From an uncultured Fibrobacteraceae bacterium (GTDB taxonomy: Bacteria; Krumholzibacteriota; Krumholzibacteriia; LZORAL124-64-63): 64,000 nt of DNA. Location of the stretch: the NCBI GenBank assembly GCA_964437115.1, contig CAYTFE010000005.1, positions 34,966 through 98,965 of the forward strand. The letters run 5' to 3'. Positions 3,110 to 39,095 of this stretch are shown here, in pieces. A program made the position numbers and the translations under genes. Under the pieces are notes generated by a model. The model worked only from the letters and a program-made list of their open reading frames with translations, did no database searches and had not been told where the DNA came from. Positions within the stretch are counted from its first letter, which is position 1. Each line of letters starts with the position of its first letter.

Positions 3110-3217
3110 GGTTGTACCTCCGGTTAAGAGCGTTAAATCCACTGCAGGAATATACTAGATTTTAGCCGGTGTTGCGACATAGAAGTAAATTACTGTATAT
3201 TCAGAGCGGAGGAATTA

Positions 3218-5002: not shown

Positions 5003-5003
5003 T

Positions 5004-5978: not shown

Positions 5979-5984
5979 AAATTA

Positions 5985-9638: not shown

Positions 9639-9639
9639 T

Positions 9640-11345: not shown

Positions 11346-11941
11346 TTCTCTTCTTTAGGCATATACTCGTCAGGCACAACCAGCTCAACAGTTTTTTCAA
11401 ACAGGAATTCGCGATTCCAGTACACACGCATAGCGTAGGTGCCGGGGTCGCGTTCTTTTTCAGGAGAGATGTTGAGTTTTGTATCAAGCCTGAAAGTTGG
11501 TTTTTCAGTAATGATTGGATCTGCAACTTTTGAGTAATGCAGATCTTCAGCTTTCAGCCAGACAATATTTGTGGTGTAGCTGTCATCGGTTTTAGTCATT
11601 GTGACTTCACCAAACTTGCGGAACATCTCTTTGCCGTCCGGTCTGATCCAGCCCAGATGGATCTGATGAGTTTTATCCAGTTGTGGATTACTGATATCGA
11701 TAGCAGCTCTCAAGTATTTGTTTTTCTTTTTACTGCTGACTTTGAACGTGTCTTTCACGCCAAGCAACTTGCCTGACTTTTTACTTACAGCACGATAGAA
11801 AATTATATCGCTCCCAAACTGATCTTCTGCCAGCTCAGAACCAGCATCAACAACAGCCTTGAATTCTTTGACATCGCTCTGCTCGCAACCGCTGATCAAA
11901 GCACCACATACCAATAATAAAACCAGAAACTTACTCATCAT
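11342..11941 (-). CDS. Hypothetical lipoprotein
   Basis: The start is moved to ATG 11941 behind AGGAGG; lipobox 'ALISGC'; beta-rich mature region. Confidence 0.72.
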   Translation of the reverse strand: MMSKFLVLLLVCGALISGCEQSDVKEFKAVVDAGSELAEDQFGSDIIFYRAVSKKSGKLLGVKDTFKVSSKKKNKYLRAAIDISNPQLDKTHQIHLGWIRPDGKEMFRKFGEVTMTKTDDSYTTNIVWLKAEDLHYSKVADPIITEKPTFRLDTKLNISPEKERDPGTYAMRVYWNREFLFEKTVELVVPDEYMPKEEN

Positions 11942-11967
11942 TGTCCTCCTTGTCAGACGAACATAAC

Positions 11968-11998
11968 AAAAGAGGAGACACTTTGCATCTCCTCTTTT
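11968..11998. terminator. Intrinsic terminator (second of a tandem pair)
   Basis: AAAAGAGGAGA-9 nt-TCTCCTCTTTT perfect inverted repeat with T tracts on both strands. Confidence 0.75.
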
Positions 11999-12013
11999 TG
12001 TAAAAACTGAAAA

Positions 12014-12047
12014 GGCAACAAGGCGAAGCGGGGAACGCCTCGTTGCC
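12014..12047 (-). terminator. Intrinsic terminator after the large C25 gene
   Basis: Minus strand GGCAACGAGGCG-loop-CGCCTTGTTGCC followed by TTTTCAGTTTTT. Confidence 0.7.
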
Positions 12048-12053
12048 ATAGTT

Positions 12054-15000
12054 TTATTTCAGTAACAGCATCTTGCGTGTTATTGATTTTCTTTCTGTAT
12101 CAAGACGATAGAAGTAAACGCCTGATGCAGTGATGTTGCCATTGTCAGATTTACCATCCCAGGTCACAAAGTGTGTGCCTGCGTCAAGCTCGCCACTAAT
12201 CAGAGTGCGAACCAATCGACCAGCAGTATCGTAAATTTGCAAGCTGGCCCTGGTTTGAGCTGGCAAGGCAAACGATATCTCTGTGCTTGGGTTGAATGGG
12301 TTTGGATAGTTGCCATTCAACATGACAGTTCTAGGTAGCTCATCACCAACTGCACTTGCACCATCTTCGATAGTAAAGTCTCCATCGGAAGCATCGTCAC
12401 TCATATTCAACTGAGTATCAAATGCAACAACTTTGATTCTGGCACTGGTTGATTGCAGCATAGGCAGATTAACATCGACCTGTGAATCTGCAGCTCCAGA
12501 ATATAGAATCTGTGACCAGGAGTCACCGCGGTCATTTGAGAACATTACTAATGAACCAGCAACAGAGTTGTTGTCACTTGAAGTGAATTCAACACTGATG
12601 TTTTCACCACTGCTAAATGTCTCGCCACCGTTTGGAGCAGTAAGTGCTACCATTGGGTCTTCTGAGTCATAGCTGGCTGTGTAGCCACCAAGTGTAAACT
12701 CATCAACACCAGCTTCAACAACTGAGCCGTTGTTATAGTCACTGGCAACAAATCGGAACTGTACTGTTGAGCTCATGCTAATTAAGCCGTCCAGAGCAAA
12801 GCTCTGCAATGACCAGCTGCGGTCACTGGTAGTTGTGTTTTCAAGTTCAACCCACGCGCCACCGTCAGATACTTCAACAACCCAGAAGTCCTCATTTGGA
12901 CCATAGCCAGTGTCATTGGTGTACCAGCGTCTGTATGAAACAGTAACATTATTGTAACCGGTCAGGTCGAAGACTGGAGAGAGCAGTGTTGTTGCTCCAC
13001 CATCGACATCTTCAGTACCCTGTGGAGAACCCGGGTCGCTTTGTCCTGTTATGAAACACATAGTTCCAGGATTAGGAGTTGCATCATCTTCAGGAGCAAT
13101 CTGAGTGCCTGCTGCTTCAACTCCGTTTGGATCAACACGAGTCCAGATACCTGTTGTGGCATCATCACCTGCTGCACCAACAGTCCAACCAGTATCTGAT
13201 TCCATATCATGGTAGTCTGACATTTCCTCGTCGATGCGGAATGAATAACTGCCTGCTGGACCGTTCGCAGGATCGCTTGAGAACAATCCTTGAATGTCGG
13301 TACCAGTTAACCAGTAACGGACACGAGTGCCAATTGGCTGGCCAGGAATTTCAGCCTGATAGTTATCATTACCAAGGTCAGCAAGGGCAAGTTCATAAAC
13401 CTGAGTACCGCCACTTGTCATGTAGTAGAAATGCAATTCATCGATGCCACTGAAATCAGTAGCATTGGTCTGGATTACATAAGGACCAGTTGTGTTATTT
13501 GAACCTTGATAAACAGTTGTATTTGTAAACTCAGGTCCAGCAATATCAGTCAAAGTAAAGTCACATGTAGTTGTCTGACCTTCAACAATATCAATATTGT
13601 AAAGAGTATCAGACTCAAGGCTTGCGTGATAGGCAACAATATCATATGTGCCTACAGGAACGCCACCCATGTAATCACCGTTTGCATCGGAAGTGAAAAT
13701 TCTTCCACTGCCAAGAACGCCAACAGTTACGCCTGCTGCTGCACGGGAAGCTGGCATCGCAATATCGATGTGACCTGCAATAGTTCCCTGAGCAGTTGGA
13801 GCCACCGGCATAAAGCGAATTGCTCTGCCAGCTGTCAATGTTGCTGCACCATCTGCATATTGATTCCAGTAGGTGTAAGTAAGACCATCAGAGTGGTCAA
13901 GATTTTGTAATCCAACTGTAGCATAACCGTTCTGAGTGTCGTAGTTATCAACTGCCTGGTATTGGATATCGATCATACAATCACCAGTGTCAGTTGGGTA
14001 ATGGGCTGGATCGTAAATTATTACCTGGAATGTCTGGTAACGATTCAGGTAGTTCATGACGTTATCCCATTCAATAATAAACATATTGTTAACAGTGTCA
14101 TGATAGTAATAGACGCCACCAGTATCTGTTGTCAGGTTGTCCCAGAATGCGGCAATCATACCGTTTGCAGTAGCTGCAGTAGGTAATGCCCAGTTACGAT
14201 AGTTCTGCATTGAAGTAGTACCAGGAGCAATCCAACCGTTTGAACAGATAGAAACTTTGTCGAAAACTTCACCGTAGTACTGGAAATCAAATGGCATATC
14301 CAGTGTTCTGGTATCGTCCTGTTCCCAGCCATTATCGTTCAGACCAACACTTGAACCAGTGGCTGAAATTTCAATCCAGTCATAGACAGGTGCAAAACCG
14401 TAATCAGTGTCAGTGTTGTCAAACATGTAGTAACCATATCCATCTGGTCCAACAGGATCAGTAGAAGATGCGGTTCCAACATTGGCTGAGAATTCAGCAG
14501 TATCTTCACTGCCATCAGCATATGTGATTTCGATAGCAAAGTTTGCCATGTGTCCAGGGTAGCAGTCATTTGCTACTGAAACAGCAAACTGGTCGCCACT
14601 GTTGTCTGCATGTCCACCTGCTGGGATGGAACCGTAGTTACCAGTTGGGTCTGAAATTGTTACCCAGGGACTGTTGCTGGTAAGAGTTGCAGTGAATGAG
14701 CCGGTAGCCATATTTCCATCGTTTACAAGGGAAACAGTTACAGCACCTGATTCACCTGGATCAAGATCATTGCCAGGAACATAGAATGTAGCCTGGTTGA
14801 AAGTGGCATCGGCACCAAAGACTTCAACAGAAACACCGGAAGTCCATGAGTCGCCACCAGAAGTGATAACCATTTCAAGCATGATATCTGATCCACCAGG
14901 GCAGTCTGCAGAAATCTGGATGTCATAGTCACCAGCAAAAGTTGCTCCTGCAGCCACAGTACCAAAGTCAATAGATCCGGAAAGAACATTGATATAAGGA

Positions 15001-17117
15001 TTGTTACTGAAAAGTTCAGCTGAAACATTGTTCATTTGAGTTGAATCATAGTTGAGCATGTCGATGCTCAAAGTAGCAGATTCATTTGGATTTACCTGGC
15101 CATCTCCATTAACGCTGAAAGATGAAACCGCAGCATAGTTTGCATTAGCAGAAACAGTGATATCCTGTCGATGAGGAATCATGTCGTGACCTGTAATGGT
15201 CAGCCTCATTGTGCTTCCAGCAAGACCAGACAGTGGCAATGTAATATTACCGCTATCATCTGTACGACCGTGAACTGATCCTAATCCATCATTCAGAAGT
15301 ACAACCATTGCATTTGGAACAGGACTGCCATATGAGTCAAGGGCAACAACATTATATGAAGTTGCAGCTGCTGGAATTTCAGGTGCATTTACAGGAGCAA
15401 AATCACCAGGAAGTGATGTCCACATTTCTGTAGCAGGATCACCCATCAGGTTGTTCCATACACACCAGACTTCAACATTATTAGGTTCAGAAAGATTGTA
15501 GTTGTTGTACATTGCAAGCTTGCCATAAGTAACTGCAGGACCAACTCTGAAATCGCCAGTGTTGATTACGCCATCAGCAATACCTGTGTAAACACAGTTG
15601 TTGTATCGAGTGTGTGTTCCTGTTGTTGCTGTTCCAATACTAGCTACAGCACCACCGTTGGGGGCCCTCAGAAATGCTTCACTATTACAGTTGCCATCAG
15701 ATTCAAAAGTACCTGTATCACAGGTTAGAAGTACTGCAAATGGCAGTTCATAGCCGTTGTCCATGTACATAATGTTTGTAGCATTAAGGCCACTCATACC
15801 CCAGTAACCACGATAACCAAAGAAGGAAATTCCGTCTCCAACTCCATTCATCATTTCAGAGGAGAAGTTTCCACTCCAGACAGTATCGATTTGAGTGTAA
15901 CCAAAGTTGAGTAGTTCATTTTTTACCCATTGGTTTACATAAATAGTTGTGATACCACTGGCAGATGGATCGCCAACAAGAAGTGCTCTGTCAAACCAGC
16001 CAGGATCAGTACCTGTTGGAGGAGTCATCTCGTAAGTTACGATTTTATCGATAACTGTTTCAAGTTCAGTTGTACTGGAAACAGAGATACGCCCCAGGTG
16101 AACATCAGAAAGTATATCGCCACCTTCAAGGCGTGTATAAGTATGATCACCTTCACCACCGTAACCACTGAGGCCTTCAGTATATGTAGGAATTGCAACT
16201 GAACCGTTGGCATCGCCAACAAGAGTTACAAATTCAAGTGGTATCTGCAAAGTGTCATACTGGTTTTGAATATAGTTTTTGATTGAGGCAGTGCTTGTTC
16301 CAGTTTGTGATGTTGTAGCAGTGATTACATTGTAACCCTGTTCTTCACGCCAGCCAACCAGTGGTTTTACAAGATTTGAGATAGTATCATCAGTAGGGTA
16401 GATAATCAGATAAGTACCACGATCTACAGTTACACCTCTGGAATCAGAATCATAGTTGGCAACTGAATTGCGGTACATGTTGTCAAATGATTCGGTAATT
16501 ACTGTGTTGTGCCTTGCTGGTGAATTTGTGCGGTCAACACCTGAGAAGTTAATATCTGCACTGATTCTTGAAGCAATAGTTGCTTTTCCTGTTTCCGGGT
16601 TCCAGCTCAAAGGATTGAAAGTAACTTGAACAACACGCAGGTTACCCATCAACGCAGGGCTGCCAACCTCGGCTGCGCTGAGTTGTGTTGCTCTGCTGTA
16701 GGCAACATTGTCAACTTCAAAACTTTCCCCATCGTTCTGAATAGGGAGAATTTTAACATCGTTGATAACAGTTGAAGAAACAACTGATGACGATGCTGAA
16801 ACTCCGGCAATATCTGGAATAGCTACCAGAGTTGAAAATGTAGGGAGACCAGGCTCGCCATTGGCACCACGGAATTCGCCACCTTTTATGGAGAAATGTT
16901 GCCAAGATTCACCTGCAATTATGACATCTTCTCTGGTAATTTCAGGAAGAGTGAATTCAAGTGTTAAACCATCAGCAGTTTCACTTAAGACAGCCACTGC
17001 TGGTTTAGAGTTGGGAATAGAGTTATCCAGAGCCAGGACTTGCTGCTGAACTTCAGTAGCAAAGGCAGAGATAGACAGTAGTAAACAGAAAAATACGACA
17101 GTTAGTCGAGGGCGCAT
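12054..17117 (-). CDS. Large C25 (gingipain-like) family protein: propeptide, C25 domain, Ig-like and NIDO-like domains, carboxypeptidase-regulatory-like domain, jelly-roll, FlgD-Ig CTD
   Basis: Start ATG 17117 behind GGAGG. Propeptide 'GEPGLP'; 'WREEQGY', 'LVGD', 'LGRIS', 'NLMGDP'; GPDGYGYY; CTD 'NYPNPFNP...WDG...SGVYFYRL...KMLLLK'. The catalytic His position reads YRG; Cys is retained (TCDTG). Confidence 0.9.
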   Translation of the reverse strand: MRPRLTVVFFCLLLSISAFATEVQQQVLALDNSIPNSKPAVAVLSETADGLTLEFTLPEITREDVIIAGESWQHFSIKGGEFRGANGEPGLPTFSTLVAIPDIAGVSASSSVVSSTVINDVKILPIQNDGESFEVDNVAYSRATQLSAAEVGSPALMGNLRVVQVTFNPLSWNPETGKATIASRISADINFSGVDRTNSPARHNTVITESFDNMYRNSVANYDSDSRGVTVDRGTYLIIYPTDDTISNLVKPLVGWREEQGYNVITATTSQTGTSTASIKNYIQNQYDTLQIPLEFVTLVGDANGSVAIPTYTEGLSGYGGEGDHTYTRLEGGDILSDVHLGRISVSSTTELETVIDKIVTYEMTPPTGTDPGWFDRALLVGDPSASGITTIYVNQWVKNELLNFGYTQIDTVWSGNFSSEMMNGVGDGISFFGYRGYWGMSGLNATNIMYMDNGYELPFAVLLTCDTGTFESDGNCNSEAFLRAPNGGAVASIGTATTGTHTRYNNCVYTGIADGVINTGDFRVGPAVTYGKLAMYNNYNLSEPNNVEVWCVWNNLMGDPATEMWTSLPGDFAPVNAPEIPAAATSYNVVALDSYGSPVPNAMVVLLNDGLGSVHGRTDDSGNITLPLSGLAGSTMRLTITGHDMIPHRQDITVSANANYAAVSSFSVNGDGQVNPNESATLSIDMLNYDSTQMNNVSAELFSNNPYINVLSGSIDFGTVAAGATFAGDYDIQISADCPGGSDIMLEMVITSGGDSWTSGVSVEVFGADATFNQATFYVPGNDLDPGESGAVTVSLVNDGNMATGSFTATLTSNSPWVTISDPTGNYGSIPAGGHADNSGDQFAVSVANDCYPGHMANFAIEITYADGSEDTAEFSANVGTASSTDPVGPDGYGYYMFDNTDTDYGFAPVYDWIEISATGSSVGLNDNGWEQDDTRTLDMPFDFQYYGEVFDKVSICSNGWIAPGTTSMQNYRNWALPTAATANGMIAAFWDNLTTDTGGVYYYHDTVNNMFIIEWDNVMNYLNRYQTFQVIIYDPAHYPTDTGDCMIDIQYQAVDNYDTQNGYATVGLQNLDHSDGLTYTYWNQYADGAATLTAGRAIRFMPVAPTAQGTIAGHIDIAMPASRAAAGVTVGVLGSGRIFTSDANGDYMGGVPVGTYDIVAYHASLESDTLYNIDIVEGQTTTCDFTLTDIAGPEFTNTTVYQGSNNTTGPYVIQTNATDFSGIDELHFYYMTSGGTQVYELALADLGNDNYQAEIPGQPIGTRVRYWLTGTDIQGLFSSDPANGPAGSYSFRIDEEMSDYHDMESDTGWTVGAAGDDATTGIWTRVDPNGVEAAGTQIAPEDDATPNPGTMCFITGQSDPGSPQGTEDVDGGATTLLSPVFDLTGYNNVTVSYRRWYTNDTGYGPNEDFWVVEVSDGGAWVELENTTTSDRSWSLQSFALDGLISMSSTVQFRFVASDYNNGSVVEAGVDEFTLGGYTASYDSEDPMVALTAPNGGETFSSGENISVEFTSSDNNSVAGSLVMFSNDRGDSWSQILYSGAADSQVDVNLPMLQSTSARIKVVAFDTQLNMSDDASDGDFTIEDGASAVGDELPRTVMLNGNYPNPFNPSTEISFALPAQTRASLQIYDTAGRLVRTLISGELDAGTHFVTWDGKSDNGNITASGVYFYRLDTERKSITRKMLLLK

Positions 17118-17202
17118 GATGCCTCCAGGTTGCGAATTCCTGAGATGGGGCGGGGTGTGTGCCATCGGGGCGGAATGCAGTAAGTGTTATAATCGTCCGC
17201 AT

Positions 17203-17231
17203 ATTATACACTATTTATTGCATATTGTGAA
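17203..17231 (-). promoter_or_regulatory. sigma70-type promoter for the 12054-17117 gene
   Basis: Minus strand TTCACA (17231-17226), 17-nt spacer, TATAAT (17208-17203). Confidence 0.65.
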
Positions 17232-17310
17232 GAGGGTCAGGCGATTTTTGTTTGAGTAAATGAATGACATTGAATAATTGTACATTTTTACACACAATCA
17301 ACGAATTATA

Positions 17311-17319
17311 TGCTACAAT
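17311..17319 (+). promoter_or_regulatory. Extended -10 promoter for the 17387-30722 operon
   Basis: TGcTACAAT about 70 nt upstream of ATG 17387 (RBS GGAGG). Confidence 0.45.
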
Positions 17320-17386
17320 GCAAGCTCGAGTCATCGTTCCCGCCAGATGACCACATATTCAAAATAAGCTTCTTTGGAGGATTCCT

Positions 17387-18982
17387 ATGTTAAGGAACGC
17401 ATCTTTGATTGCCTTCTTGTTCTTTGCACTGCCTGCTTTGGCAGCAACAATTTATGTCCCAGGTGACTATGCCCAGATTCATGATGCTGTTCAGGCAGCA
17501 AATTCTGGTGACGTAGTCCAGGTCGCTGCTGGTACATATAATGACTGTACACATGAAACCGAAGGCCCTGAAAGTACTCCTGCGTGCGTTATCATGAAAT
17601 CTGGTGTTACTTTGCGTGGCGCTGGCCCTGATGCAACAATTATCGATGCCCAAGGTCTGGGTCGTGGAATATTCATTGAAGGTGTTTCAAACTGTAGTGT
17701 TGAAAACCTGCAGGTTCGCGGTGCATATGCAGCAATTTATGGTGCTGGTATCCTGATTCGCCAGGTTGGCATCGATGTAACAATCACCGATGTATCAATC
17801 ACCGAAAATCTTGATGGCGGGCTGATCTGCTATGACAACGCCTCTCCATTTTTATTGAGATTGCACTGTTACAATAACGAAGCAAAACAGGGTGGTGGAA
17901 TCTCTGTTGAAGAATTCAGTTCTCCAGTTATTGAAAGCTGTATTGTAGAAAATAATGAAGCACCTAGTGGTGCTGGTATTTTCATTCGTAACCAGAGTGA
18001 TGCAACAATTCTCTATTGTACAATTACCGGAAATGTTATCAACGCAGCGTATGGTAATGGTGGTGGAATTTGTGTTACCGGTTCAAACCCTATAATCAGC
18101 GGTTGTGAGATAAATGGTAATACCACTTTGGGTTATGGTGGTGGCGTCAGCTATTTGAATAACTCTGGTGGATCGCTTTCAAGCAGTAGAATCAACGATA
18201 ATATCGCTTCAGGTGACAATTCACTTGGTGGTGGTATTTCTGTTAACGGATCAACTCCTCTGATTGAATACTGCCTGATTGCAAGAAATAGCCTGACTGG
18301 TGTTTATGGCGATGGTGGGGGCGTAGATTGTACCGGAACTCCATCTGCTACTTTTGATCATTGTACCATTATAGAGAATTCAACTGTAGGGTCTGCTGGT
18401 GGAATGTTTTTCCAGTATGGCGCAGATCCTATAATCGAACACAGCATGATTTTGGATTCTACTGCTGGTGAGGCGCTTTATTGCACCTTTGGTGGTACAC
18501 CAACCGTTTCCTGTAGCAATATCTATGGTAATGCTGGTGGCGATGCTATTTGTGGTAATGATACCGGTGACAACATCAGTGCCGACCCTGAATTTTGCGA
18601 TCTTGCAACTTTCACTCCATCGGATGTCAGCCCTGCTGCTGATATTTGTGGCGGATACTGCGGATATATTGGACCTGGTTGTGCGTCTGGCGTAGAAACT
18701 CCTGCGTCGGTTCACCTCCTGGGGAATTACCCGAATCCGTTTAACCCATCAACAACAATAGCTTTCATGCTTGACGAACCTGCTTCTGCTGAGTTAATAA
18801 TCAGGGATGTGCAGGGTAAAGCGGTGAAGCATATCACCCTGGGTGACCTCCCGTCAGGTCGCCACGAGTCCGCTTGGAATGGTCGAGACAACAACGACCG
18901 CCCCGCCGCAAGCGGTGTATATTTCTATGAACTACATGCCATGGGCATGAAACAGTCGAGGCGAATGATTCTAATTAAATGA
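17387..18982 (+). CDS. Right-handed parallel beta-helix repeat protein with FlgD-Ig CTD
   Basis: Signal peptide; 'IYVPGDYAQIHDAV'; repeated GGGI/N-x-A motifs; Cys-rich linker; NYPNPFNP CTD. Confidence 0.88.
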   Translation: MLRNASLIAFLFFALPALAATIYVPGDYAQIHDAVQAANSGDVVQVAAGTYNDCTHETEGPESTPACVIMKSGVTLRGAGPDATIIDAQGLGRGIFIEGVSNCSVENLQVRGAYAAIYGAGILIRQVGIDVTITDVSITENLDGGLICYDNASPFLLRLHCYNNEAKQGGGISVEEFSSPVIESCIVENNEAPSGAGIFIRNQSDATILYCTITGNVINAAYGNGGGICVTGSNPIISGCEINGNTTLGYGGGVSYLNNSGGSLSSSRINDNIASGDNSLGGGISVNGSTPLIEYCLIARNSLTGVYGDGGGVDCTGTPSATFDHCTIIENSTVGSAGGMFFQYGADPIIEHSMILDSTAGEALYCTFGGTPTVSCSNIYGNAGGDAICGNDTGDNISADPEFCDLATFTPSDVSPAADICGGYCGYIGPGCASGVETPASVHLLGNYPNPFNPSTTIAFMLDEPASAELIIRDVQGKAVKHITLGDLPSGRHESAWNGRDNNDRPAASGVYFYELHAMGMKQSRRMILIK

Positions 18983-27291: not shown

Positions 27292-29628
27292 ATGACCTTT
27301 CGCAAGATAACTTTGTTAGTGATGGCACTGGCGGTCCTGGTTTCAGGCTGTGGTCGTGAAGACCTTTTCGAGTTGCCACATACTCCACTTCATCAAATCA
27401 GTTTTATTGAAATGCCTTCAAGTTGTGATGGCATTACATCGATGGGTAACTACGCCTATGTTGCTGGTGGCGAAGCAGGACTTGAAGTTCTGGACATCAC
27501 TGATCCAGCCAATCCTGAGCTGATTGCAATTTACGATACCAATAAATACGGTGAAGGTATTGAAGTGGTTCGTATTATGGATAACGACCAGCTTTGGGAT
27601 GTTGCAGTTGTTGTTGAAGCAACTGAAGGTCTGTCTACATACGATATTACCGATCCTGCAAATCCTGTTTCTTTTGAGCAGGGTGGTGGTGCTTATGATG
27701 CACAAAAAATCTTCATCGAACCAGGTGATGATCCTGGTGATCCATACATTCTTTACATGGCAGACAGCTGGCGTGGACTTCGGATATTCCGATCAGTTCC
27801 TGGCACACCAGGAGCACACACTCAGTTGCTGAATGCTGAAGAACCTCGTGGTTACACCAAAGATGTTGTTGTAAAAGATGGCGTTGCTTATGTGGTGGAA
27901 AACGAGATGGGTGTAGCGGTTTACGATGTTTCAGATCCTGACTTTCCTGAGCTTCTTCCACAATGGACAGATACTTATGGTAATGCGTTGGGTATCGATA
28001 TTGCAGGAAACTATATATACATCGCCGATGGTGTTGAAGGTATCGTAATTATGAAAATCAACGGCACTGATGCTCCTGAAATTGTGGCATCGATTGATCT
28101 ACCGGCATATAGCAGAAGTATTACGGTTCGCAACGGTTGGGCACTGCTTGCTGCAAGCGATGGCGGAGTTCACGTTGTTGACGTAGCTGATCCGGAAAAT
28201 CCTGTTTACTCAGGTACAGTTGAAGCCGGTTTTGCACTGGACTTGTGTGTAACTGACAGCGGTCATGTTCTGGTTGCTGATCGTGACGATGGAATTTTTG
28301 TACTTGGCGGCCTGGATCTGGTTGTCGACACAACAGCACCTGCAAAAATCAATTCTCTGGAAGCTGAAGCGCTGAGTTTTACAGAAGTTGAGCTCAACTG
28401 GTTTGCAACCGGCGATGACGGGTTGCACGGCAGAGCGACAAGTTACCAGATCAGATATCTTGATACTCCTATAGAAAACGATGCTGACTGGGAAGCTGCA
28501 ACAGTAGTTGAAAATGTGCCAACTCCGGAAGTTCCTGGAGTAAATGAGACTATGGTTATCGACATGTTTTCTGCTGGTCAAACCTTGAACTTCTGTGTTC
28601 GCGCAATGGATGATCAAGGGTACTTGTCACCTATTGGCAATAGTTATGAAGTTGTAATGCCTGAAGGTATTTTGCTTCTTGGTGGTGTCGATCAGGACGT
28701 AGCTCCTGCTCAACATGAATTTGTTTTTGAAGTAGTCTATTTCAATTCTGAATCTCGTGACCCGGATACTGCCAACCTTTATGTTGGTGCTAGCATTTAT
28801 GATATGGAATACATCGAGGGCGATAATTTTACCGGCGCAACTTACCGTAAGTCGCTCTTCATGGATCTTGGCCAATACAATTACTTTTTTGGATTCAACG
28901 ATGGCCAGGGATTCTCTTCACAAACAGAGATACAACAAGTATCAGTTCTGACTCGATTCTTCTATGAAATGGGAAGTCCTCTGGAAGAAGAGGGTCGCAA
29001 CGATGATGAAGTTCTGCACACAGCAGGACTTCGTGACTCACTTGTCTGTTCTCCATACGAAGTAACTCAGGCAGAGTGGGTGGCAGTGGGAATGACCAAC
29101 AACTCAAATTTTGTTGGCGACAACCTGCCTGTTGAAACAGTGACCTGGGCTGAGGCTCTTGAGTATTGTAACGCTCGGTCTGTTGCTGATGGACTTACTC
29201 CTGTGTATGACGGAACTGACTGGAACAGAAATGCCGATGGTTGGAGACTACCAACTGAAGCAGAGTGGGAGTACCTGTGCAGAGCAGGTTCTGAAACTCC
29301 TTACAATGGTGAAGATTTGGACAATCTTGGTTGGCACGATGGTAACTCAGGATTCCAGACTCATCCTGTCGGCGAAAAAAGTCCCAATGCATGGGGACTT
29401 TATGACATGCACGGTAATGTTCGTGAATGGTGCTGGGACTGGTACGGAGATTACACAGAAGGCATAGAACTTGATCCAACCGGCCCACAAACAGGTGTTC
29501 AAAAAGTAGTTCGTGGCGGGAGCTGGCATTATCTGGCAAGAGAGTGCAGAAGTGCAGCTCGTGGTGTTTATTACCCGGGATCAGCAGATGATTTCATCGG
29601 CCTCCGAGTAGTTCGAAGCGTTCAATAG
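27292..29628 (+). CDS. Lipoprotein with LVIVD repeats, Fn3-like domain and C-terminal SUMF1/EgtB/PvdO (FGE-sulfatase) domain
   Basis: Lipobox LVSGC; 'YAYVAGGEAGLEVLDITDP' repeats; 'WFATGDDG...YQIRY'; 'RLPTEAEWEY', 'PNAWGLYDMHGNVREW', 'VVRGGSW'. Confidence 0.88.
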   Translation: MTFRKITLLVMALAVLVSGCGREDLFELPHTPLHQISFIEMPSSCDGITSMGNYAYVAGGEAGLEVLDITDPANPELIAIYDTNKYGEGIEVVRIMDNDQLWDVAVVVEATEGLSTYDITDPANPVSFEQGGGAYDAQKIFIEPGDDPGDPYILYMADSWRGLRIFRSVPGTPGAHTQLLNAEEPRGYTKDVVVKDGVAYVVENEMGVAVYDVSDPDFPELLPQWTDTYGNALGIDIAGNYIYIADGVEGIVIMKINGTDAPEIVASIDLPAYSRSITVRNGWALLAASDGGVHVVDVADPENPVYSGTVEAGFALDLCVTDSGHVLVADRDDGIFVLGGLDLVVDTTAPAKINSLEAEALSFTEVELNWFATGDDGLHGRATSYQIRYLDTPIENDADWEAATVVENVPTPEVPGVNETMVIDMFSAGQTLNFCVRAMDDQGYLSPIGNSYEVVMPEGILLLGGVDQDVAPAQHEFVFEVVYFNSESRDPDTANLYVGASIYDMEYIEGDNFTGATYRKSLFMDLGQYNYFFGFNDGQGFSSQTEIQQVSVLTRFFYEMGSPLEEEGRNDDEVLHTAGLRDSLVCSPYEVTQAEWVAVGMTNNSNFVGDNLPVETVTWAEALEYCNARSVADGLTPVYDGTDWNRNADGWRLPTEAEWEYLCRAGSETPYNGEDLDNLGWHDGNSGFQTHPVGEKSPNAWGLYDMHGNVREWCWDWYGDYTEGIELDPTGPQTGVQKVVRGGSWHYLARECRSAARGVYYPGSADDFIGLRVVRSVQ

Positions 29629-29636
29629 GAGAGTCA

Positions 29637-30722
29637 ATGCGATTTACATTCATAGATCGGTTCCGTGGTCTGATTGGTGTCATGATGGCACTTGGTCACA
29701 GCAATTATTATTTCAATGCTGCGTGGCTGAGCCTGGATCCGCTTGATCCATTTTTCGATAACACCGGTCAGTTCTGGTTACGATACATGGGCTATCTCTG
29801 TGCTCCAGGTTTTCTGGCAATGAATGGCGCAATGGTTTACTGGGCCTACAAACGACGTATCACTCACGGCCTGTCACATGCACAAGCATCGTGGGAACTG
29901 ATTCAGCGTGGACTGTTCCTGATTGTAATGCAACTTGTCTGGGTTAACTCAAGTTGGAGTGGATTGGCCAGACTGAGACTTGCTCACTTTGGTATTATTG
30001 CAACCATCGGTGTGTCAATGATATTGCTGACTCTGATTGTTCGATGGAAATGGTGGCAACGCGCAATTCTGGCAGCTGCCCTTTTCATTGGCCAACCGTT
30101 CCTGCTGAAAATCAGTTACGATATTGATGGCCCCTGGCATTATCTGAACCAGTTTCTTTTCGATGCCGGAGACTTCAACAAATACCCGGTTTTGCCCTGG
30201 TTCGCATTAGCAGTTGTGGGTAGCATCATGGCTCACTTCTGGTTTGAGAAATGGCAGACCGACAGTGAACGAGCTAACAAGAGTATGTTGATTGGCCTTG
30301 GTCTGACAGCCCTTGCTTTGATAGTCAGACTTGGCAACGGCTTTGGAAATCTGTTTGAAACAGGCGACTTTATGAGCTGGTCATTCATGCTTGTTCAAAA
30401 ATACCCACCGACACTTGTTCATCAACTCTGGTTAAGTGGCGCAGTGATTTTCTTTGTCGGCCTGATGTGCAGAATCGGAATTCATTCCAATATTTTTGCA
30501 TTCCTTGGTATAGTTGGTAAAGTGCCGCTGTTCTTTTACGCAGTGCATATTCCATTGCTTGCAATCTTTGCAAAACGGATGGGATATTTTTATCGCGAAG
30601 GTGCCGTTAAAGAATCACTGATTGGCTGGGTCATACTGGTTGCAATTATGTTGCCGCTTGCTTACGGGTTTGCAAAAGTTAAAAAGAAGTACAGGAAAAA
30701 CTGGTTTATCAGGATGATTTAA
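29637..30722 (+). CDS. DUF1624/HGSNAT-like membrane acyltransferase
   Basis: 'IDRFRGLIGVMMALGH', 'LCAPGF', 'YPVLPW', 'QKYPPTL', 'LFFYAVH'; multi-TM. Confidence 0.85.
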   Translation: MRFTFIDRFRGLIGVMMALGHSNYYFNAAWLSLDPLDPFFDNTGQFWLRYMGYLCAPGFLAMNGAMVYWAYKRRITHGLSHAQASWELIQRGLFLIVMQLVWVNSSWSGLARLRLAHFGIIATIGVSMILLTLIVRWKWWQRAILAAALFIGQPFLLKISYDIDGPWHYLNQFLFDAGDFNKYPVLPWFALAVVGSIMAHFWFEKWQTDSERANKSMLIGLGLTALALIVRLGNGFGNLFETGDFMSWSFMLVQKYPPTLVHQLWLSGAVIFFVGLMCRIGIHSNIFAFLGIVGKVPLFFYAVHIPLLAIFAKRMGYFYREGAVKESLIGWVILVAIMLPLAYGFAKVKKKYRKNWFIRMI

Positions 30723-30874
30723 ATGTGTTGCAGAGCTGGTATTGAAAGATGATATACCCATGACAGTAGCTTCTGGCAGGGTTTGAAATCGCAATTATGC
30801 AAAGTATTTTTGCAGTGATACAAGATGTGATTGTAGTGATTTATTTGGCGTAACTTTGCTTACTACATAATGAT

Positions 30875-30905
30875 ACCACTGGTTGTGATGGCCGGTGGTT
30901 TTTTC
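30875..30905 (+). terminator. Intrinsic terminator closing the pgs operon
   Basis: ACCACTGG-loop-CCGGTGGT followed by a T tract. Confidence 0.6.
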
Positions 30906-30998
30906 TACTCTATAATATTATTCAAAAACTCGGTTTTTTTTTGTTCCCTATGCGGAAGTATGTATTGATAATTATTTATTGGAAATTGGAGGCTCGAA

Positions 30999-33758
30999 AT
31001 GAAAAATCTCTCTTATGCTATTCTTTTCGTGATGCTTTTATCTTCTGGGGCTGTTTGTGAGCAGTGGATTGAGGATAATGTTTTGATAAAATTTGAAGAG
31101 GGTTTTTTAGAACCTGCACTTTCAGACATTCAACTATTATATAATGTTGAGCTAACAAAATCTCTAGGAGATGATGTATATAAGTTAGTACTACCTATAG
31201 AGTCAGACGAAGTTCAAGTCATGGAAGACATCAAATCACTATGGTCTGCTGAAATAGTATTTGTTGATTTGAATTATTATCATACGATTGATTTTGGCGG
31301 CAGGTCCTCAAATACAATAGATCCGTTACCGGTTGATTGGGAATTTCCATTTTCCTGTTCTGAAACATCACAAGAACAGTGGGGGCTGGCTGATAATTTA
31401 TTGAATGTGTGTGATGCTTGGGAGTGTACAAAAGGAACTAGTGATGTAGTTGTGATTGTGATTGATGCTGGAGTTAATAGAAATCATTTAGAGTTACAGC
31501 CGTATGGCAGAGTGCCTATGGAGGGAATATCTTTTTCAGACCAAGAGTGGTTTCATGATCTTAGCGGCCATGGGACGGCAATAGCAAGTATTATTTGGGC
31601 AAATCATGATGAATACGGAATAAGCGGAGTGGCTCCTAATGTACGGTTGTGGTCTTGGCAAGTTGGAATACCAGGTACTCAATATGAAGCTCAATACCCG
31701 AGTGATTTATTTATAACCGCTTTAGATACTCTAGATGCAATATCTCAAGAAAATTGTGATACTAATTTTATTGTTAATATCTCCATTGATTATGGATCTA
31801 CAATAAATAGTAATACTGCAAATATTATTCGTGAGAAAATGGAATCAATTGTTACCAACAGTGGGAATGTGCTTTTTGTTGCTGCTAGTGGGCAAGATAA
31901 TAGTTGGCGCCCGGGTGATGAACATTTAATAATCGGCAGAGTTGTTGTTCCAGCTTCTTTTTCTGGAGCTGGAGATCAGTTAGGCAACTTCTATTCTCAA
32001 GAGGTTGATAACAATACAATTGCAGTAACTTCTATTACTGCTTCTTCTTCATGGTTTGAGCCATTTGGTTGTAATACTTATGATTACAATCTTGTGGCAC
32101 CATTCAATCAAAATTGGGCTTATGCTCTTGGGGGTGAGTCAGGAACGGCTATTGATACTTGTAGTGTGATTGTTGACTGTGTTGCTCCCGGTGGTGGCCA
32201 CGCTTGGCTCAATCCTCCATATTCAGTTGAAATCAATGGAATTGGAGTTTATGTAGCTGATTTCGAGGGTGGTCATTATTGGAAAACTGGTAATTCTCTT
32301 GCAGCTCCTCATGTTGCTGGCGTTGCCGCTTTGGTGTGGTCCCTTACTCCAGGAATGAATGCAGATGTAGTAAAAGACATTATTCGGAGATCTAGTAATA
32401 GATCCTATATTAATTATAAAGATGATTTTAGTCATAGTCACGAATGTGTTTTTCATGGTATTTCATTGCACAAAGATCATGAGTTTGTATCAAGTTATGA
32501 GGATAATTGCCCTCATCCTGAACCAGTAATAGAAGGAGGATGGACACCGGGTGTGTCTTCAACAGGGAGGAGTCAGTCTTACTTGGATAATTATTCTAGT
32601 GTAGTGATGGGCTCAGGAATGGTAGACGCGTATATGGCCGTTTTGGCTGCTGAATATCAAAAAACATTCCTCATGTATTCAGGTGGAATTATTGATGAGC
32701 CTATTGTGATTAACGATGTAAGAGCAATATATCTATTCGGTGATATGCTTATTGAAAATGGCGGTTCTTTACGCTTATACCCGCCAGACGGGGTTTCTGA
32801 TGTTCGTATTATTGTTATGGATGTAGATGAAAATGATATATTTGGAAATGAGTTAATTAGCATTCATGTTGGTGATGGCGGCAGCATTACGTGTGATGGT
32901 GATATTTATTTTTATTCAGAACATGGTCCTGCTTCTACAGATCAAACATGGGAAGGCCTTGTATTAGAACAGGGTTCTGCGGTTAGTATTACTGGAGACA
33001 ATTTTATCAAAATCAGAAATTCCAATATCGGCCTACAGGATGAGGGGGGTCATACTATATCTAATCCGGTTTATATTGAGGATTGTGGATTTGGTTTATC
33101 AATTTCAGGAGATTCAGTTTATTCAGATATTCATGTCAGCGATTGCGATTTTGGGGTAGAAATCTCTAATAGTAACATAAGTCCTGAATTGACAGGTATT
33201 ATCGAGGATATAAGTGTTGGAATCCTTATTAACAGCAAAAATGAGATTTTCTTGAATTTGAAAAATTTAGAATGCACAGGAGGCTATTATGGGGTGAATG
33301 TTTTGAATGGAAATAATATTACTATTAAAAATGGTTATTTTGAAGGCTCAACTATACATGGTATTTATGCTATGAATTCAACAGGAGTTGTTCTAACAGA
33401 TATTGAAATTAGAGATGTTTCACAGGATGGAGTAAGACTTGATTCAAGTATTGCTCAATTGAAAGCTTTGTCGTTGATAGATAATTCTATAATAGCAGTA
33501 TCTTGTTTTGGCACCAGCGAAGTATCCATGAGTGATTGTATAATATCAGGAGGTTCTAACGGGCTGGCTGTTTTTGATTCATCGATAGCAGATCTTGAGT
33601 CTGATGGTGGAGATAACGTAATGAGTGATGTTAGTTATTATTTTGTCACAAATTTGAATTCACCAGAATGTATTCCTGCACAAGGTAATATATGGAACAG
33701 ACATTCATGTATTGACCCTTCCAAGAAATTGGGATGTGTTGATGATGGCTGTCAATAG
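30999..33758 (+). CDS. S8 subtilase-like protein with C-terminal beta-helix region (atypical active-site motifs)
   Basis: Signal peptide; VIDAGV (Asp), HGTAIASII (His), GNSLAAPHVAG (Ser); beta-helix-like repeats at the C-terminus; no CTD. Confidence 0.8.
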   Translation: MKNLSYAILFVMLLSSGAVCEQWIEDNVLIKFEEGFLEPALSDIQLLYNVELTKSLGDDVYKLVLPIESDEVQVMEDIKSLWSAEIVFVDLNYYHTIDFGGRSSNTIDPLPVDWEFPFSCSETSQEQWGLADNLLNVCDAWECTKGTSDVVVIVIDAGVNRNHLELQPYGRVPMEGISFSDQEWFHDLSGHGTAIASIIWANHDEYGISGVAPNVRLWSWQVGIPGTQYEAQYPSDLFITALDTLDAISQENCDTNFIVNISIDYGSTINSNTANIIREKMESIVTNSGNVLFVAASGQDNSWRPGDEHLIIGRVVVPASFSGAGDQLGNFYSQEVDNNTIAVTSITASSSWFEPFGCNTYDYNLVAPFNQNWAYALGGESGTAIDTCSVIVDCVAPGGGHAWLNPPYSVEINGIGVYVADFEGGHYWKTGNSLAAPHVAGVAALVWSLTPGMNADVVKDIIRRSSNRSYINYKDDFSHSHECVFHGISLHKDHEFVSSYEDNCPHPEPVIEGGWTPGVSSTGRSQSYLDNYSSVVMGSGMVDAYMAVLAAEYQKTFLMYSGGIIDEPIVINDVRAIYLFGDMLIENGGSLRLYPPDGVSDVRIIVMDVDENDIFGNELISIHVGDGGSITCDGDIYFYSEHGPASTDQTWEGLVLEQGSAVSITGDNFIKIRNSNIGLQDEGGHTISNPVYIEDCGFGLSISGDSVYSDIHVSDCDFGVEISNSNISPELTGIIEDISVGILINSKNEIFLNLKNLECTGGYYGVNVLNGNNITIKNGYFEGSTIHGIYAMNSTGVVLTDIEIRDVSQDGVRLDSSIAQLKALSLIDNSIIAVSCFGTSEVSMSDCIISGGSNGLAVFDSSIADLESDGGDNVMSDVSYYFVTNLNSPECIPAQGNIWNRHSCIDPSKKLGCVDDGCQ

Positions 33759-33768
33759 GAGGAAAAGA

Positions 33769-34458
33769 ATGTTTAAGACTACAATACTATTACTAATGCT
33801 GTTTGTTGCAACATCTCTTTGGGCAATAACTATTACGCCGGCCAATTATCTTAATAATAGCGCTGTCTGTATTGACCTGGAGGATGATTATGAAGATTTT
33901 AGTGGAATACTAATTGTCGAGCTACCGCTATCTGTTTCCGATAGTGTTGAATATGGTGAAATGAGAGCAATTCGAGTTATTGCTGAAGGTTCAAGTGATT
34001 TAATTGAACAACTTGGGTGTATTGGAAGTAATACATATCCCATTGAGTTGAGTAACTATACTGACAGTCGTGTGTTTTTTGTATTCTCACCGGAAGCAGA
34101 TTTGAATCTTTCACAAGAGAGAGCAGAGATTGTAGTATTAGCTATGAACTTCAATAATGATGTTAATGAATTTATTATTGATCATAGTTGTAGTGGTGAT
34201 AATATAGATAAACCTGTTGCATTATTGGTTGTCAAAGATGGTAATATTTCACTTGCAGCAAATAGTGCTCAAAGTGACTATGCTGAATTATCTCTTTTTG
34301 ATATTCGTGGTCGTTTTGTTTCAAAGGTGACTAATGCAACAGGAGAAATATCAATGAATATCAATGAACATAGGTTGTCATCAGGTGTATATTTGTATAT
34401 TATCAATAATACAACTGGGGTTAAGGTTGCGTCTGGGAAGGTTGTTATAGTTCGATGA
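33769..34458 (+). CDS. Small secreted protein with T9SS-type CTD
   Basis: Start ATG 33769 behind AGGAGG; signal peptide; 'LSLFDIRGRFV...LSSGVYLYII...KVVIVR'. Confidence 0.78.
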   Translation: MFKTTILLLMLFVATSLWAITITPANYLNNSAVCIDLEDDYEDFSGILIVELPLSVSDSVEYGEMRAIRVIAEGSSDLIEQLGCIGSNTYPIELSNYTDSRVFFVFSPEADLNLSQERAEIVVLAMNFNNDVNEFIIDHSCSGDNIDKPVALLVVKDGNISLAANSAQSDYAELSLFDIRGRFVSKVTNATGEISMNINEHRLSSGVYLYIINNTTGVKVASGKVVIVR

Positions 34459-35003
34459 AAACTACAGGGTGCATAATATTTTTATTTGTCTCACATGTAA
34501 TGATTATTGATGCATTTGCTTTAACATTAGATGTGATTTCAGACGTGACAGTAGATACCCAGTGGATTGATTATTATTATTTCAGTCTTAATGAAGTATT
34601 GTCTGAGGTCACAGAAGTAAGACTAGTTGCTCATGTTAATATTGCAGAGGTGCCAGCAATTCATAGTGATGATTTAAACATGACACTTCCTTGGGGCTTT
34701 AGCCTTTATTGTGTAATTGATGGAGATTCTTGGGAGAGTATTGGGACAGAACAATATTTTCATTCAACCTCAAGTGGTGATTATTATGTTGATATTATTT
34801 TTAATGGTAACGAGGGATATGGATTTATGCTCGACTCTGAAGAGCTTCGCCTGATATCTGGTTTTTTACCATTGAGTAGACCTCCTGGGTGGAATTTTAT
34901 CACACACGGAGAGATTTATATCGATTATTTCACTTTGGAAATTAATGGTGTTCTTCCAACTGATGAGACATCAATGGGTCGACTTAAGTTGTTGTTTAGA
35001 TAA
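34455..35003 (+). CDS. Secreted hypothetical protein, tandem paralog 1 (tail GVLPTDETSMGRLKLLFR)
   Basis: Signal peptide; conserved SDVT...FSL..V.SEVT.VR core shared with the next two genes. Confidence 0.8.
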   Translation: MKTTGCIIFLFVSHVMIIDAFALTLDVISDVTVDTQWIDYYYFSLNEVLSEVTEVRLVAHVNIAEVPAIHSDDLNMTLPWGFSLYCVIDGDSWESIGTEQYFHSTSSGDYYVDIIFNGNEGYGFMLDSEELRLISGFLPLSRPPGWNFITHGEIYIDYFTLEINGVLPTDETSMGRLKLLFR

Positions 35004-35012
35004 TTAGCAAGA

Positions 35013-35585
35013 GTGAGGTTAGGCTCTGTGAAATTCGTAAGAATTATTATAACTATGTTAATGCTATCTATTTCGTTTGTCGCAGTTGCCTATGCTACTA
35101 CAGTTGAAGTGTTGTCGGATGTAACAATATATACTTCTTCTGGATATGGTCATGAGTTTTTCAGTCTTGATGGAGTTATGTCTGAAGTAACCGATGTTAG
35201 AGTGGTAACTCATATTAATGTGATACATCTTCCAACAATTATTAACCCTGAGACAGGTGAAGTTCTACAATGCGGCATTAAATTAGGCTGTGGGATTTCC
35301 AGGGAAGTATCTCCATACCCAGCAATTGGTGAATCTGTAGAGTTTTATTCATTGGGAGAGATGTCTGTGGATATGGAAATGTCCGGTTACTGGGGTTATG
35401 ACTTTATGACTCTAGGATATGTTCTTGATGCATCGGTCAGGTTCAGCAGTGTATCGCCTTATGTGAATGGTTGGTATCCTTATGATGTTGGAGAAGTCTA
35501 TGTTGATCACATAGATTTCGTAGTTGATGGTGTGTTACCAACTGAGCAAACATCCTTTGGTGGTGTAAAGATGTTATTCAGATAG
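35013..35585 (+). CDS. Secreted hypothetical protein, tandem paralog 2 (tail GVLPTEQTSFGGVKMLFR)
   Basis: Same core and tail. GTG start; an alternative GTG lies a few codons downstream. Confidence 0.8.
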   Translation: MRLGSVKFVRIIITMLMLSISFVAVAYATTVEVLSDVTIYTSSGYGHEFFSLDGVMSEVTDVRVVTHINVIHLPTIINPETGEVLQCGIKLGCGISREVSPYPAIGESVEFYSLGEMSVDMEMSGYWGYDFMTLGYVLDASVRFSSVSPYVNGWYPYDVGEVYVDHIDFVVDGVLPTEQTSFGGVKMLFR

Positions 35586-35608
35586 CTTCTTTATGGAGGT
35601 ACGTTTCA

Positions 35609-36166
35609 ATGAAAACAGCTAACAGCATAATTCTTTCAATATTGATATCGCTTGTTCTATGTGTTGATACTTCTGCTTTAACAATGGAAGTAGCTTCGGA
35701 TGTTACTCAAAATGCTTTATGGTCAGAATCTACATATTTCAGTCTTGATGGAGTAATGTCAGAGGTAACAGAAGTCAGGCTCATTGCTCATATTGATATT
35801 ATAGAACTTCCTACAATACGCAACTACGAGCTGAATGAGACACTTCCCTGGTACTTAATTATTAGTAGTATAATTTGGATAAATTCCAGCAGAGGATTTG
35901 TTTCTGCAAGTCAGACTTTTACCCCCGATTCAAATGGTGAATACTATGTCGATATTGTTTTTGAAGGTGGTTCTGGTTATGAATTTATGACTGAAGTGCC
36001 AGAGATACAGTTATTGACTTTTTTTGATGCTCTTCTTCCAGGGGATCCTAATTGGCAAATTGAAACTTATGGTGAGATTTACATCGATTATATAACTGTA
36101 GAAATTGATGGTGTACTACCAACCACGCATACATCCTTCGGTGGTGTGAAGGCGTTATTCAGGTAG
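35609..36166 (+). CDS. Secreted hypothetical protein, tandem paralog 3 (tail GVLPTTHTSFGGVKALFR)
   Basis: GGAGG RBS; same core and tail. Confidence 0.8.
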   Translation: MKTANSIILSILISLVLCVDTSALTMEVASDVTQNALWSESTYFSLDGVMSEVTEVRLIAHIDIIELPTIRNYELNETLPWYLIISSIIWINSSRGFVSASQTFTPDSNGEYYVDIVFEGGSGYEFMTEVPEIQLLTFFDALLPGDPNWQIETYGEIYIDYITVEIDGVLPTTHTSFGGVKALFR

Positions 36167-37946: not shown

Positions 37947-38051
37947 TGTTCTCCAAAGTCATTGTAACATTTAATAAAATATCTTGTCAAATTGATGGCT
38001 GTTGGCAGATACTTCGTGTCGCTGAATAACGTCACACCAAAGAGGAAATAA

Positions 38052-39074: not shown

Positions 39075-39095
39075 CAGGGCTGACAGTACAATTAT

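Follow-up and report, generated by a model that had tools for sequence, protein, structure and literature searches.

Poly-gamma-glutamate (PGA) serves as a capsule, as a biofilm matrix and as an industrial polymer, and we know of no account of how, in bacteria with two membranes, it crosses the outer membrane and is then retained. This question is raised by a gene cluster in a stretch of 64,000 nucleotides (nt) from contig CAYTFE010000005.1 of an uncultured Fibrobacteraceae bacterium (assembly GCA_964437115.1; the whole stretch is called the window hereafter), in which genes for a PGA synthase stand between a gene for a gingipain-related protein of the Peptidase_C25 family and genes for further envelope proteins. 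It appears rather probable that the cluster encodes a dedicated envelope-spanning PGA system of those bacteria of the Fibrobacterota-Chlorobiota-Bacteroidota (FCB) group that bear a type IX secretion system (T9SS), with surface partners delivered by that secretion system. One line of evidence for this picture is linkage. A profile of homologs of PgsW, the third protein of the synthase core, was searched against contigs representing each species by one genome and yielded 80 loci, which were taken with 10 kb of sequence on either side; counts are given below for the loci with enough flank to judge. In 52 of 60 loci, the gene immediately upstream of pgsB is C25-like, and in four more (L065, L066, L074 and L076) such a gene is nearby; the gap between the C25-like gene and pgsB is shorter than 200 nt in 58 of 59 cases. 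The linkage of C25-like and pgs genes is real. An earlier note, made from this DNA sequence alone, had proposed that the C25 gene and the genes downstream belong with pgsBCW, and the association holds for these genes across two deep clades.

The genes of the plus-strand run at 17387-30722 are labelled g1 to g9, and their minus-strand neighbours g0 and gm1. From left to right, the features are:

11342-12049, minus strand: gm1, a small lipoprotein with no assigned family, 3' of g0 on the minus strand
12054-17165, minus strand: g0, 1703 amino acids (aa), with a C25 propeptide, a C25-like domain lacking the catalytic His, NIDO-like and immunoglobulin (Ig)-like domains and a T9SS type-A C-terminal domain (CTD)
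17166-17386: divergent intergenic region, in which either strand has hexamers of sigma-70 type and a GGAGG ribosome-binding site precedes g1
17387-18982, plus strand: g1, a right-handed beta-helix with a T9SS CTD
18979-22599, plus strand: g2, 1206 aa, with a C25-like domain, a C25 Ig domain, a NIDO-like domain and a T9SS CTD
22606-23760, plus strand: g3, PgsB, poly-gamma-glutamate synthase (amide ligase)
23757-24230, plus strand: g4, PgsC, membrane subunit
24214-25332, plus strand: g5, PgsW (TIGR04332), an alpha/beta domain between two transmembrane helices
25319-26170 (alternative start at 25292), plus strand: g6, an exported, basic, internally duplicated protein
26167-27282, plus strand: g7, a predicted 14-strand porin-like outer-membrane beta-barrel
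27292-29628, plus strand: g8, a lipoprotein whose LVIVD repeats are joined to an FGE-sulfatase (GldK/PorK-like) domain at the C-terminus
29637-30722, plus strand: g9, a polytopic membrane acyltransferase of the HGSNAT/DUF1624 type
30875-30909, plus strand: an intrinsic-terminator-like hairpin (11-bp stem at 30875-30899) and T run, at the right end of the unit

Presence of each gene was assessed by tblastn of the window proteins against the 80 loci, followed by extraction of open reading frames (ORFs). Both pgsB and g7 were found in all assessable loci (70/70 each), g6 in 73 of 74, a g8-like gene downstream in 56 of 60 and g9 in 46 of 52. Clade A, to which the window belongs, comprises metagenome-assembled genomes labelled Krumholzibacteriota, Latescibacterota and 'Fibrobacteraceae', and its C25-like proteins are 37-47% identical to g2; clade B carries the labels Bacteroidales, Lentimicrobiaceae and Ignavibacteriales, with C25-like proteins that are 25-27% identical. 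The same two-level pattern of identity recurs in every gene, and thus the block has been inherited as a unit. In a clade-B example (L058), the order is a C25-like gene (with propeptide and CTD), pgsB, pgsC, pgsW, g6, g7, a gene for an LVIVD protein, an HGSNAT gene and a small ORF homologous to gm1, after which an unrelated gene follows on the opposite strand. Two Nitrospirota loci (L054 and L056) retain only pgsBCW-g6-g7, without CTD proteins, g8 or g9; these five genes therefore represent the core module, which is supplemented in the FCB group by the C25, LVIVD, acyltransferase and gm1 genes. A beta-helix-CTD gene persists in L045, which has no C25 gene, and in L080 (Ignavibacteriaceae), which also lacks one, a Peptidase_M14 zinc carboxypeptidase gene at 6816-8126 of that locus stands directly upstream of pgsB, which may be a positional replacement by another peptidase in this single case.

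The layout of the run is largely as the earlier note had described it. Nine ORFs, all on the plus strand, occupy 17387-30722, and successive genes either overlap (by 4, 4, 17, 14 and 4 nt) or are separated by gaps of 6, 9 and 8 nt, so that the proposed limit of 10 nt is never reached. The start of g6 is likely the ATG at 25319, as annotated in a close relative whose g6 is 89% identical. A second, divergent C25 gene was also found where it had been proposed (g0, with C25 propeptide, C25 domain and CTD), and the suggested terminator after g9 corresponds to the strong hairpin listed above. The promoter candidate is no better than chance, as a sigma-70 scan returned 16 sites compared with 22.3 expected in shuffled sequences and is thus uninformative. 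On the right, the boundary of the cluster is g9. The S8 protease gene at 30999-33758 was considered as a further member and rejected, because it stands beyond the terminator, none of the related loci has an ortholog of it, and in a close relative (L081) an IS3-family transposase gene takes its place after g9; the region to the right of the cluster appears to be variable. On the left, the system reaches beyond 17387, and gm1 belongs to the gene set, because gm1 homologs accompany the cluster in at least 12 clade-B loci. In these loci and in L076 they lie directly after the acyltransferase gene, whereas in L039 the homolog is divergent beside the cluster.

What, then, does the cluster produce? 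The synthase core and the TIGR04332 family are already known. The g3 product matches the PgsB model TIGR04012 with 404 bits (curated equivalog cut-off 222.7) and is 36% identical over 95% of its length to Bacillus anthracis CapB, and the g4 product matches the PgsC model TIGR04011 with 122.6 bits (curated equivalog cut-off 96.45) and is 36% identical to CapC. Thus, the window resembles the Bacillus PgsBCA(E) and B. anthracis CapBCADE systems in possessing equivalog-level orthologs of PgsB and PgsC, and also in that a likely polymer-processing gene adjoins the synthase genes, as do capD and pgdS in Bacillus. However, it differs from Bacillus-type operons in several respects: the host has two membranes, there are five to six extra envelope genes, and PgsA/CapA, CapD of the gamma-glutamyltranspeptidase (GGT) type and CapE are all lacking. 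The absence of capA/pgsA, capD and capE from the operon had been claimed earlier and stands, since no match to CapA (PGA_cap) or to the GGT/CapD families was found among the scanned window ORFs of at least 150 aa, and the operon junctions, with gaps of at most 9 nt, leave no room for capE.

The third core protein, PgsW, matches TIGR04332 ('poly-gamma-glutamate system protein') with 316.7 bits (cut-off 100), and its gene overlaps pgsC by 17 nt. An AlphaFold2 model (predicted local distance difference test score, pLDDT, 89; predicted template modelling score, pTM, 0.87) places an alpha/beta domain between N- and C-terminal transmembrane helices. A Foldseek search of this model against the PDB returned no fold match (best E=1e-3, template modelling (TM) score <0.3), which speaks neither for nor against a PgsA-like fold as far as the model goes, and no homology between PgsW and CapA is detectable (hhalign probability 0.05%). 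Nothing was found either when profiles of g6, g7 and PgsW were compared with PDB sequences. From its position and the definition of its family, PgsW would fill the place of PgsA/CapA without being related to it in sequence. This arrangement has precedents. A cassette of capB, capC and a third gene has been described as typical of Gram-negative PGA producers, the third gene having been named PgsF in Cloacimonadota (bioRxiv 10.1101/2025.11.11.687785), and for Fusobacterium nucleatum PMC3815933 cites Candela 2009. What the window has in common with these cassettes is PgsB and PgsC plus one more membrane protein that stands in for PgsA. However, their descriptions end at three genes, whereas the core in the window sits within a conserved block of 10-11 genes.

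Among the genes of this block, g6 and g7 are candidates for export. The g6 product has a signal peptide, and the internal duplication suggested for it earlier is supported by a BLASTP self-match (E=3e-4). It has no Pfam or PDB sequence match, and a Pfam scan of 49 g6 orthologs gave scattered chance matches only. In the g7 product, a signal peptide is followed immediately by the tract KKKKKKKKAKPK. An AlphaFold2 model of g7 is a 14-strand barrel (pLDDT 80, pTM 0.74). Foldseek places it closest to OmpG and CymA, both of them monomeric channels with 14 strands, and to chitoporin (E=1e-8, with TM scores on the target of up to 0.65), and the g7 orthologs give weak but consistent Pfam matches to outer-membrane barrels. 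The earlier proposal of an outer-membrane barrel serving as an export channel is thus upheld for the signal peptide and the predicted porin-like barrel; g7 is probably a beta-barrel channel of the outer membrane, and its conductance of PGA is a prediction. Charge is consistent with such a role. The computed isoelectric points (pI) of g6 (9.3-9.5) and g7 (9.4-9.5) make them basic outliers among the exported proteins of the window, all others of which fall at pI 4.0-4.6. A tract rich in Lys and Arg occurs just before the first g7 strand, with at least six such residues in 12 in 20 of 46 orthologs from both clades, and under a rough assignment of strand phase, the lumen-facing positions hold 25 Lys and Arg against 12 Asp and Glu. 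Two basic proteins encoded right after a polyanion synthase would be the expected look of a PGA conduit. Furthermore, long forms of g7 (approx. 500-535 aa; L012, L013, L015, L020, L024, L029 and L036) begin with an additional domain that shows homology to the g6 repeat (hhalign 79%, E=1.6e-5). This extension occurs in many clade-A genomes, and loci with the long form still carry a separate g6 gene. The fusion of a g6-like domain to the g7 barrel argues that g6 and g7 work together.

The remaining accessory genes are conserved to different degrees. The best conserved is g9, which is 46-67% identical across both clades, has multiple hydrophobic segments and matches PF07786 (HGSNAT_cat, formerly DUF1624) with 57.3 bits (cut-off 22). 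The beta-helix protein g1 (Beta_helix, 87.7 bits; CTD model TIGR04183, 24.0 bits against a cut-off of 23) is confined to clade A, in which it is 44-57% identical over approx. 96% of its length. The lipoprotein g8 has the lipobox LVSGC, LVIVD repeats and an FGE-sulfatase domain (133.7 bits), whose best NCBIfam matches are members other than the formylglycine-generating enzyme (FGE) itself, such as PvdO and GldK. Its tail (...RGGSWHYLARECRSAARG) shows a single Cys, the C-terminal catalytic motif of FGE being a Cys pair. In clade B, the one g8 counterpart that was scanned (L058) has LVIVD repeats only, and the others match 15-43% of g8. The small lipoprotein gm1 has no Pfam match, and its start is likely the Met of MMSKF... 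near position 11941, which gives the lipobox LISGC. Nearly all of the domain calls first made for these and the other genes are confirmed by Pfam and NCBIfam; the exceptions include an Fn3 domain in g8, of which the Pfam/NCBIfam scans detected none, and the assignment of the C25 proteins to the PorU family.

The C25 proteins require closer consideration. Peptidase_C25 (PF01364) is matched with scores of 159 bits (g2) and 175 bits. In g2, the C25-like domain (residues 146-490) is followed by the C25 Ig domain, a NIDO-like domain at approx. 800-1016 and the T9SS CTD at 1124-1206. The type-A CTD model (TIGR04183, cut-off 23) gives 39.4 bits for g0 and 31.2 bits for g2, and secretion is predicted for both. 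The best PDB matches of the C25-like domain are gingipains (profile E=8e-61), PorU being a distant fifth (E=1e-17). Against the PorU profile NF033707, the score is 42.4 bits compared with a cut-off of 420, and only the tail of the model (positions 1001-1079) is matched. The proposed membership of the PorU family therefore does not hold, and the His/Cys dyad is also missing. At the active site, Cys376 of g2 aligns with Cys244 of the gingipain RgpB and is invariant in all 55 pgs-linked copies; the corresponding Cys is present in g0 as well. Where PorU (6za2) has the motif YAGHG, the linked proteins have Y-R-G followed by W, E or Y, and the Arg (Arg340) is invariant. The S1 residue Asp163 of RgpB is replaced by Thr in g2, and thus no specificity for Arg or Lys is expected. 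The only conserved His column of the catalytic domain is His416, within the motif [S/T]-H-T-x-Y-N (53 of 56 sequences), two residues after a Trp aligned to that of the ...QSW... loop of RgpB, which we take to be Trp284, the S1 lid. Overall, Cys376, Arg340, Thr417 and Asn420 are invariant despite identities as low as 25%. A C25 propeptide is kept both in g0, a gene that most clade-A loci have in divergent orientation, and in the one scanned copy from clade B (L058).

These features extend beyond the pgs loci. A full-library search with the catalytic domain gave 6,936 cluster representatives, 476 of them at E ≤1e-30. Of the nearest 150, 147 carry Arg340 and 148 the Cys; the canonical His occurs in 2 and His416 in approx. 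77. The second conserved domain of g2 (800-1016) is recognised as NIDO-like in 34 of 37 orthologs; 123 of 124 full-length relatives possess it, and it matches the N-terminus of the T9SS adhesin RemA (8gl6_D, E=5e-13). Judged by sequence, g2 and g0 are therefore members of a family that is large, coherent and uncharacterised and in which a C25-like (Arg/Cys) domain occurs with a NIDO-like domain and a CTD, and they are neither PorU nor canonical gingipains. The gingipains RgpB and Kgp are their best PDB sequence matches and have in common with them the catalytic Cys and the Ig-like C25_C domain, and with g0 the propeptide as well. However, they differ in having Trp, Glu or Tyr in place of His211 and Thr in place of Asp163. 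Likewise, they share with the T9SS attachment complex of Porphyromonas gingivalis (PorU and the anionic lipopolysaccharide, A-LPS) the C25/clan-CD fold, the type-A CTD and the association of an anionic surface polymer with T9SS proteins, but unlike PorU, they fall far below the NF033707 cut-off, lack the catalytic His, and have the invariant Arg and the NIDO-like domain.

Taken together, these data suggest how an envelope-spanning system might operate. PgsB and PgsC would polymerise glutamate at the inner membrane, by homology to characterised enzymes, this step being established in Bacillus. PgsW, acting as a non-homologous substitute for PgsA, may pass the polymer to the periplasm. There, periplasmic g6 together with the g7 barrel and its poly-Lys tether could carry the polyanion over the outer membrane, as their fold, charge, fusion and synteny suggest, and the lipoproteins g8 (through its LVIVD propeller) and gm1 might assist them in transport. 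The acyltransferase g9 could, speculatively, acylate the polymer or an acceptor on the periplasmic face; by analogy with HGSNAT, a free amino terminus is one possible target. Finally, the T9SS would place g2, g0 and, in clade A, g1 on the surface, where they may process or retain the emerging polymer. Within this picture, g2 and g0 might be polymer-processing enzymes with a remodelled site made up of Cys376, the invariant Arg340 and a relocated His416, and they could act as functional analogues of CapD or PgdS, that is, cut PGA or else transfer and anchor it. A catalytic role for g2 and g0 is possible, with a probability that we place somewhat short of even. It is favoured by the invariance of Cys, Arg, Thr and Asn at 25% identity, by the retention of the propeptide in g0 and clade B, and by the M14 carboxypeptidase gene that precedes pgsB in the single locus L080.

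Several points weigh against this picture as a whole or against catalysis in particular. It is gene spacing that suggests co-transcription of g1 to g9, and homology that points to gamma-PGA as the probable product. The window contains no T9SS core genes. The g7 model was built on 16 sequences, and a search for g6 homologs gave five proteins, too few for a useful structure model. With regard to catalysis, the position of RgpB His211 is occupied by Trp342 in g2 and by Tyr in g0, by Trp throughout clade A and by Glu in clade B, and the canonical His is absent from all 55 pgs-linked copies; as far as sequence comparison goes, a PorU-type His/Cys sortase mechanism therefore cannot simply be transferred to these proteins. 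Glu342 of clade B was considered as a substitute general base and rejected, since clade A has Trp there. His416 as a universally relocated base is weakened, since only about one in two members of the wider family has it. Moreover, g2, g0, g1 and g8 are strongly acidic (pI approx. 4.1), and simple electrostatic capture of a polyanion is thus disfavoured.

The loss of the canonical His raises the question of whether the C25-like proteins are enzymes at all. They might instead be non-catalytic surface scaffolds or adhesins, that is, pseudo-proteases that hold the PGA layer via their NIDO-like and Ig domains, with the rest of the system operating as outlined above. The absence of the His not only from all linked copies but also from 148 of the 150 nearest representatives fits this explanation, as does the resemblance of the almost ubiquitous NIDO-like domain to the RemA N-terminus. 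However, it would be unusual for a decaying active site to keep Cys376, Arg340, Thr417 and Asn420 invariant across 25% identity, the propeptide is retained, and the strong acidity of the proteins disfavours the binding of a polyanion; a purely structural role is therefore regarded as rather unlikely, though a serious contender. Alternatively, the C25-like genes could encode ordinary nutritional proteases of a proteolytic bacterium and happen to lie beside a three-gene PGA cassette. The window is indeed rich in secreted peptidases (C1, S8, S9, M24 and M48), but chance can hardly account for adjacency in 52 of 60 loci over two deep clades with gaps that almost never reach 200 nt, and the canonical protease dyad is absent, which makes coincidence very improbable.

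The proposal of the earlier note was more specific: a PorU-like sortase that removes CTDs and couples T9SS cargo to PGA, or that anchors PGA in place of CapD, by transpeptidation. The tight linkage to pgsB, the clan CD fold, which includes PorU, and the many CTD cargo genes in the window are all compatible with it, and PGA has a free alpha-amino terminus that could serve as the nucleophile. Nevertheless, the match to the PorU profile is confined to its tail and reaches a tenth of the cut-off, the YAGHG motif of PorU has become YRG followed by W, E or Y, and the linked proteins carry CTDs themselves, like ordinary cargo. This version is accordingly thought improbable. The broader part of the same proposal, a PGA pathway of two-membraned bacteria with envelope components of its own, is well supported by the linkage, by the g7 barrel and by the absence of CapA, CapD and CapE. 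Returning to the envelope-spanning system with T9SS-delivered partners, one further extension may be considered, namely that the Arg/Cys C25-NIDO-CTD proteins act at the surface as transpeptidases of a new class, which covalently attach PGA to the outer membrane or to T9SS cargo at the g6/g7 pore. We regard this as a long shot. If true, it would represent a polyamide counterpart of A-LPS anchoring, with a catalytic arrangement not seen in gingipains or PorU.

How does such a system compare with known routes of polymer export? In the synthase-dependent Pga, Alg, Bcs and Pel systems, an inner-membrane synthase, a periplasmic partner, an outer-membrane beta-barrel and a membrane acyltransferase are encoded together, and the logic of the present cluster is alike. 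However, the cluster has no components homologous to theirs apart from weak, generic barrel matches, it lacks a tetratricopeptide-repeat scaffold, its polymer is a polyamide, and its 14-strand barrel is like OmpG and CymA. PGA loci are widespread in two-membrane phyla (PMC5542703). Published models of PGA loci involve either CapABCDE-type genes only (PMC5542703) or a three-gene cassette (bioRxiv 10.1101/2025.11.11.687785), and this latter preprint, on Cloacimonadota, makes no mention of an outer membrane, secretion or gingipains. A literature search whose reach left out most subscription journals found no paper linking PGA genes to the T9SS, to C25-like proteins, to an outer-membrane barrel or to an HGSNAT acyltransferase, and no relevant paper was found on pgsW, TIGR04332 or PgsF together with the T9SS or PorU.

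The surroundings of the cluster show further features. Immediately to its right, at 30999-34458, a gene for an S8 subtilase with a beta-helix (919 aa, no CTD) is followed, with a 47-nt overlap, by a 248-aa ORF in another frame that contains a T9SS CTD; the two appear to represent a single cargo gene that has been broken up by a frameshift or by an error in sequencing. The segment at 30001-36000 has a G+C content of 0.36-0.40, compared with 0.43-0.47 elsewhere, and holds small ORFs without family. Dense T9SS-CTD cargo, comprising a papain-like C1 peptidase, a CotH kinase with a lamin-tail domain, an S8 protease and a 592-aa protein of no known type, is encoded at 1058-8267 and 36168-41804. All of these proteins have a pI of 4.0-4.3, which suggests an acid-shifted secretome as in a salt-adapted, proteolytic organism. 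Just left of the cluster, at 8388-11345, three genes stand in a row, coding for a solute-binding protein that starts with a DUF1858 domain, for a GTPase of the CobW/HypB/UreG type and for an ATP-binding-cassette ATPase; together with a HupE/UreJ gene at 38052-39074, they may form a metal-handling unit. A stand-alone HNH endonuclease gene (46139-47131, 330 aa) lies amid housekeeping genes, with no obvious mobile-element partner in the scanned ORFs.

The cluster thus names candidates for each missing step in the handling of PGA by two-membrane bacteria: a basic pore and its partner, lipoproteins, an acyltransferase and C25-like proteins delivered by the T9SS. These candidate genes are inherited together in dozens of uncultured FCB lineages, and they offer the first testable candidate for PGA export and handling in such bacteria. 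The Arg/Cys C25-NIDO-CTD family, in turn, would be a pseudo-protease of wide distribution, unless it is a clan CD variant with a new kind of catalysis.

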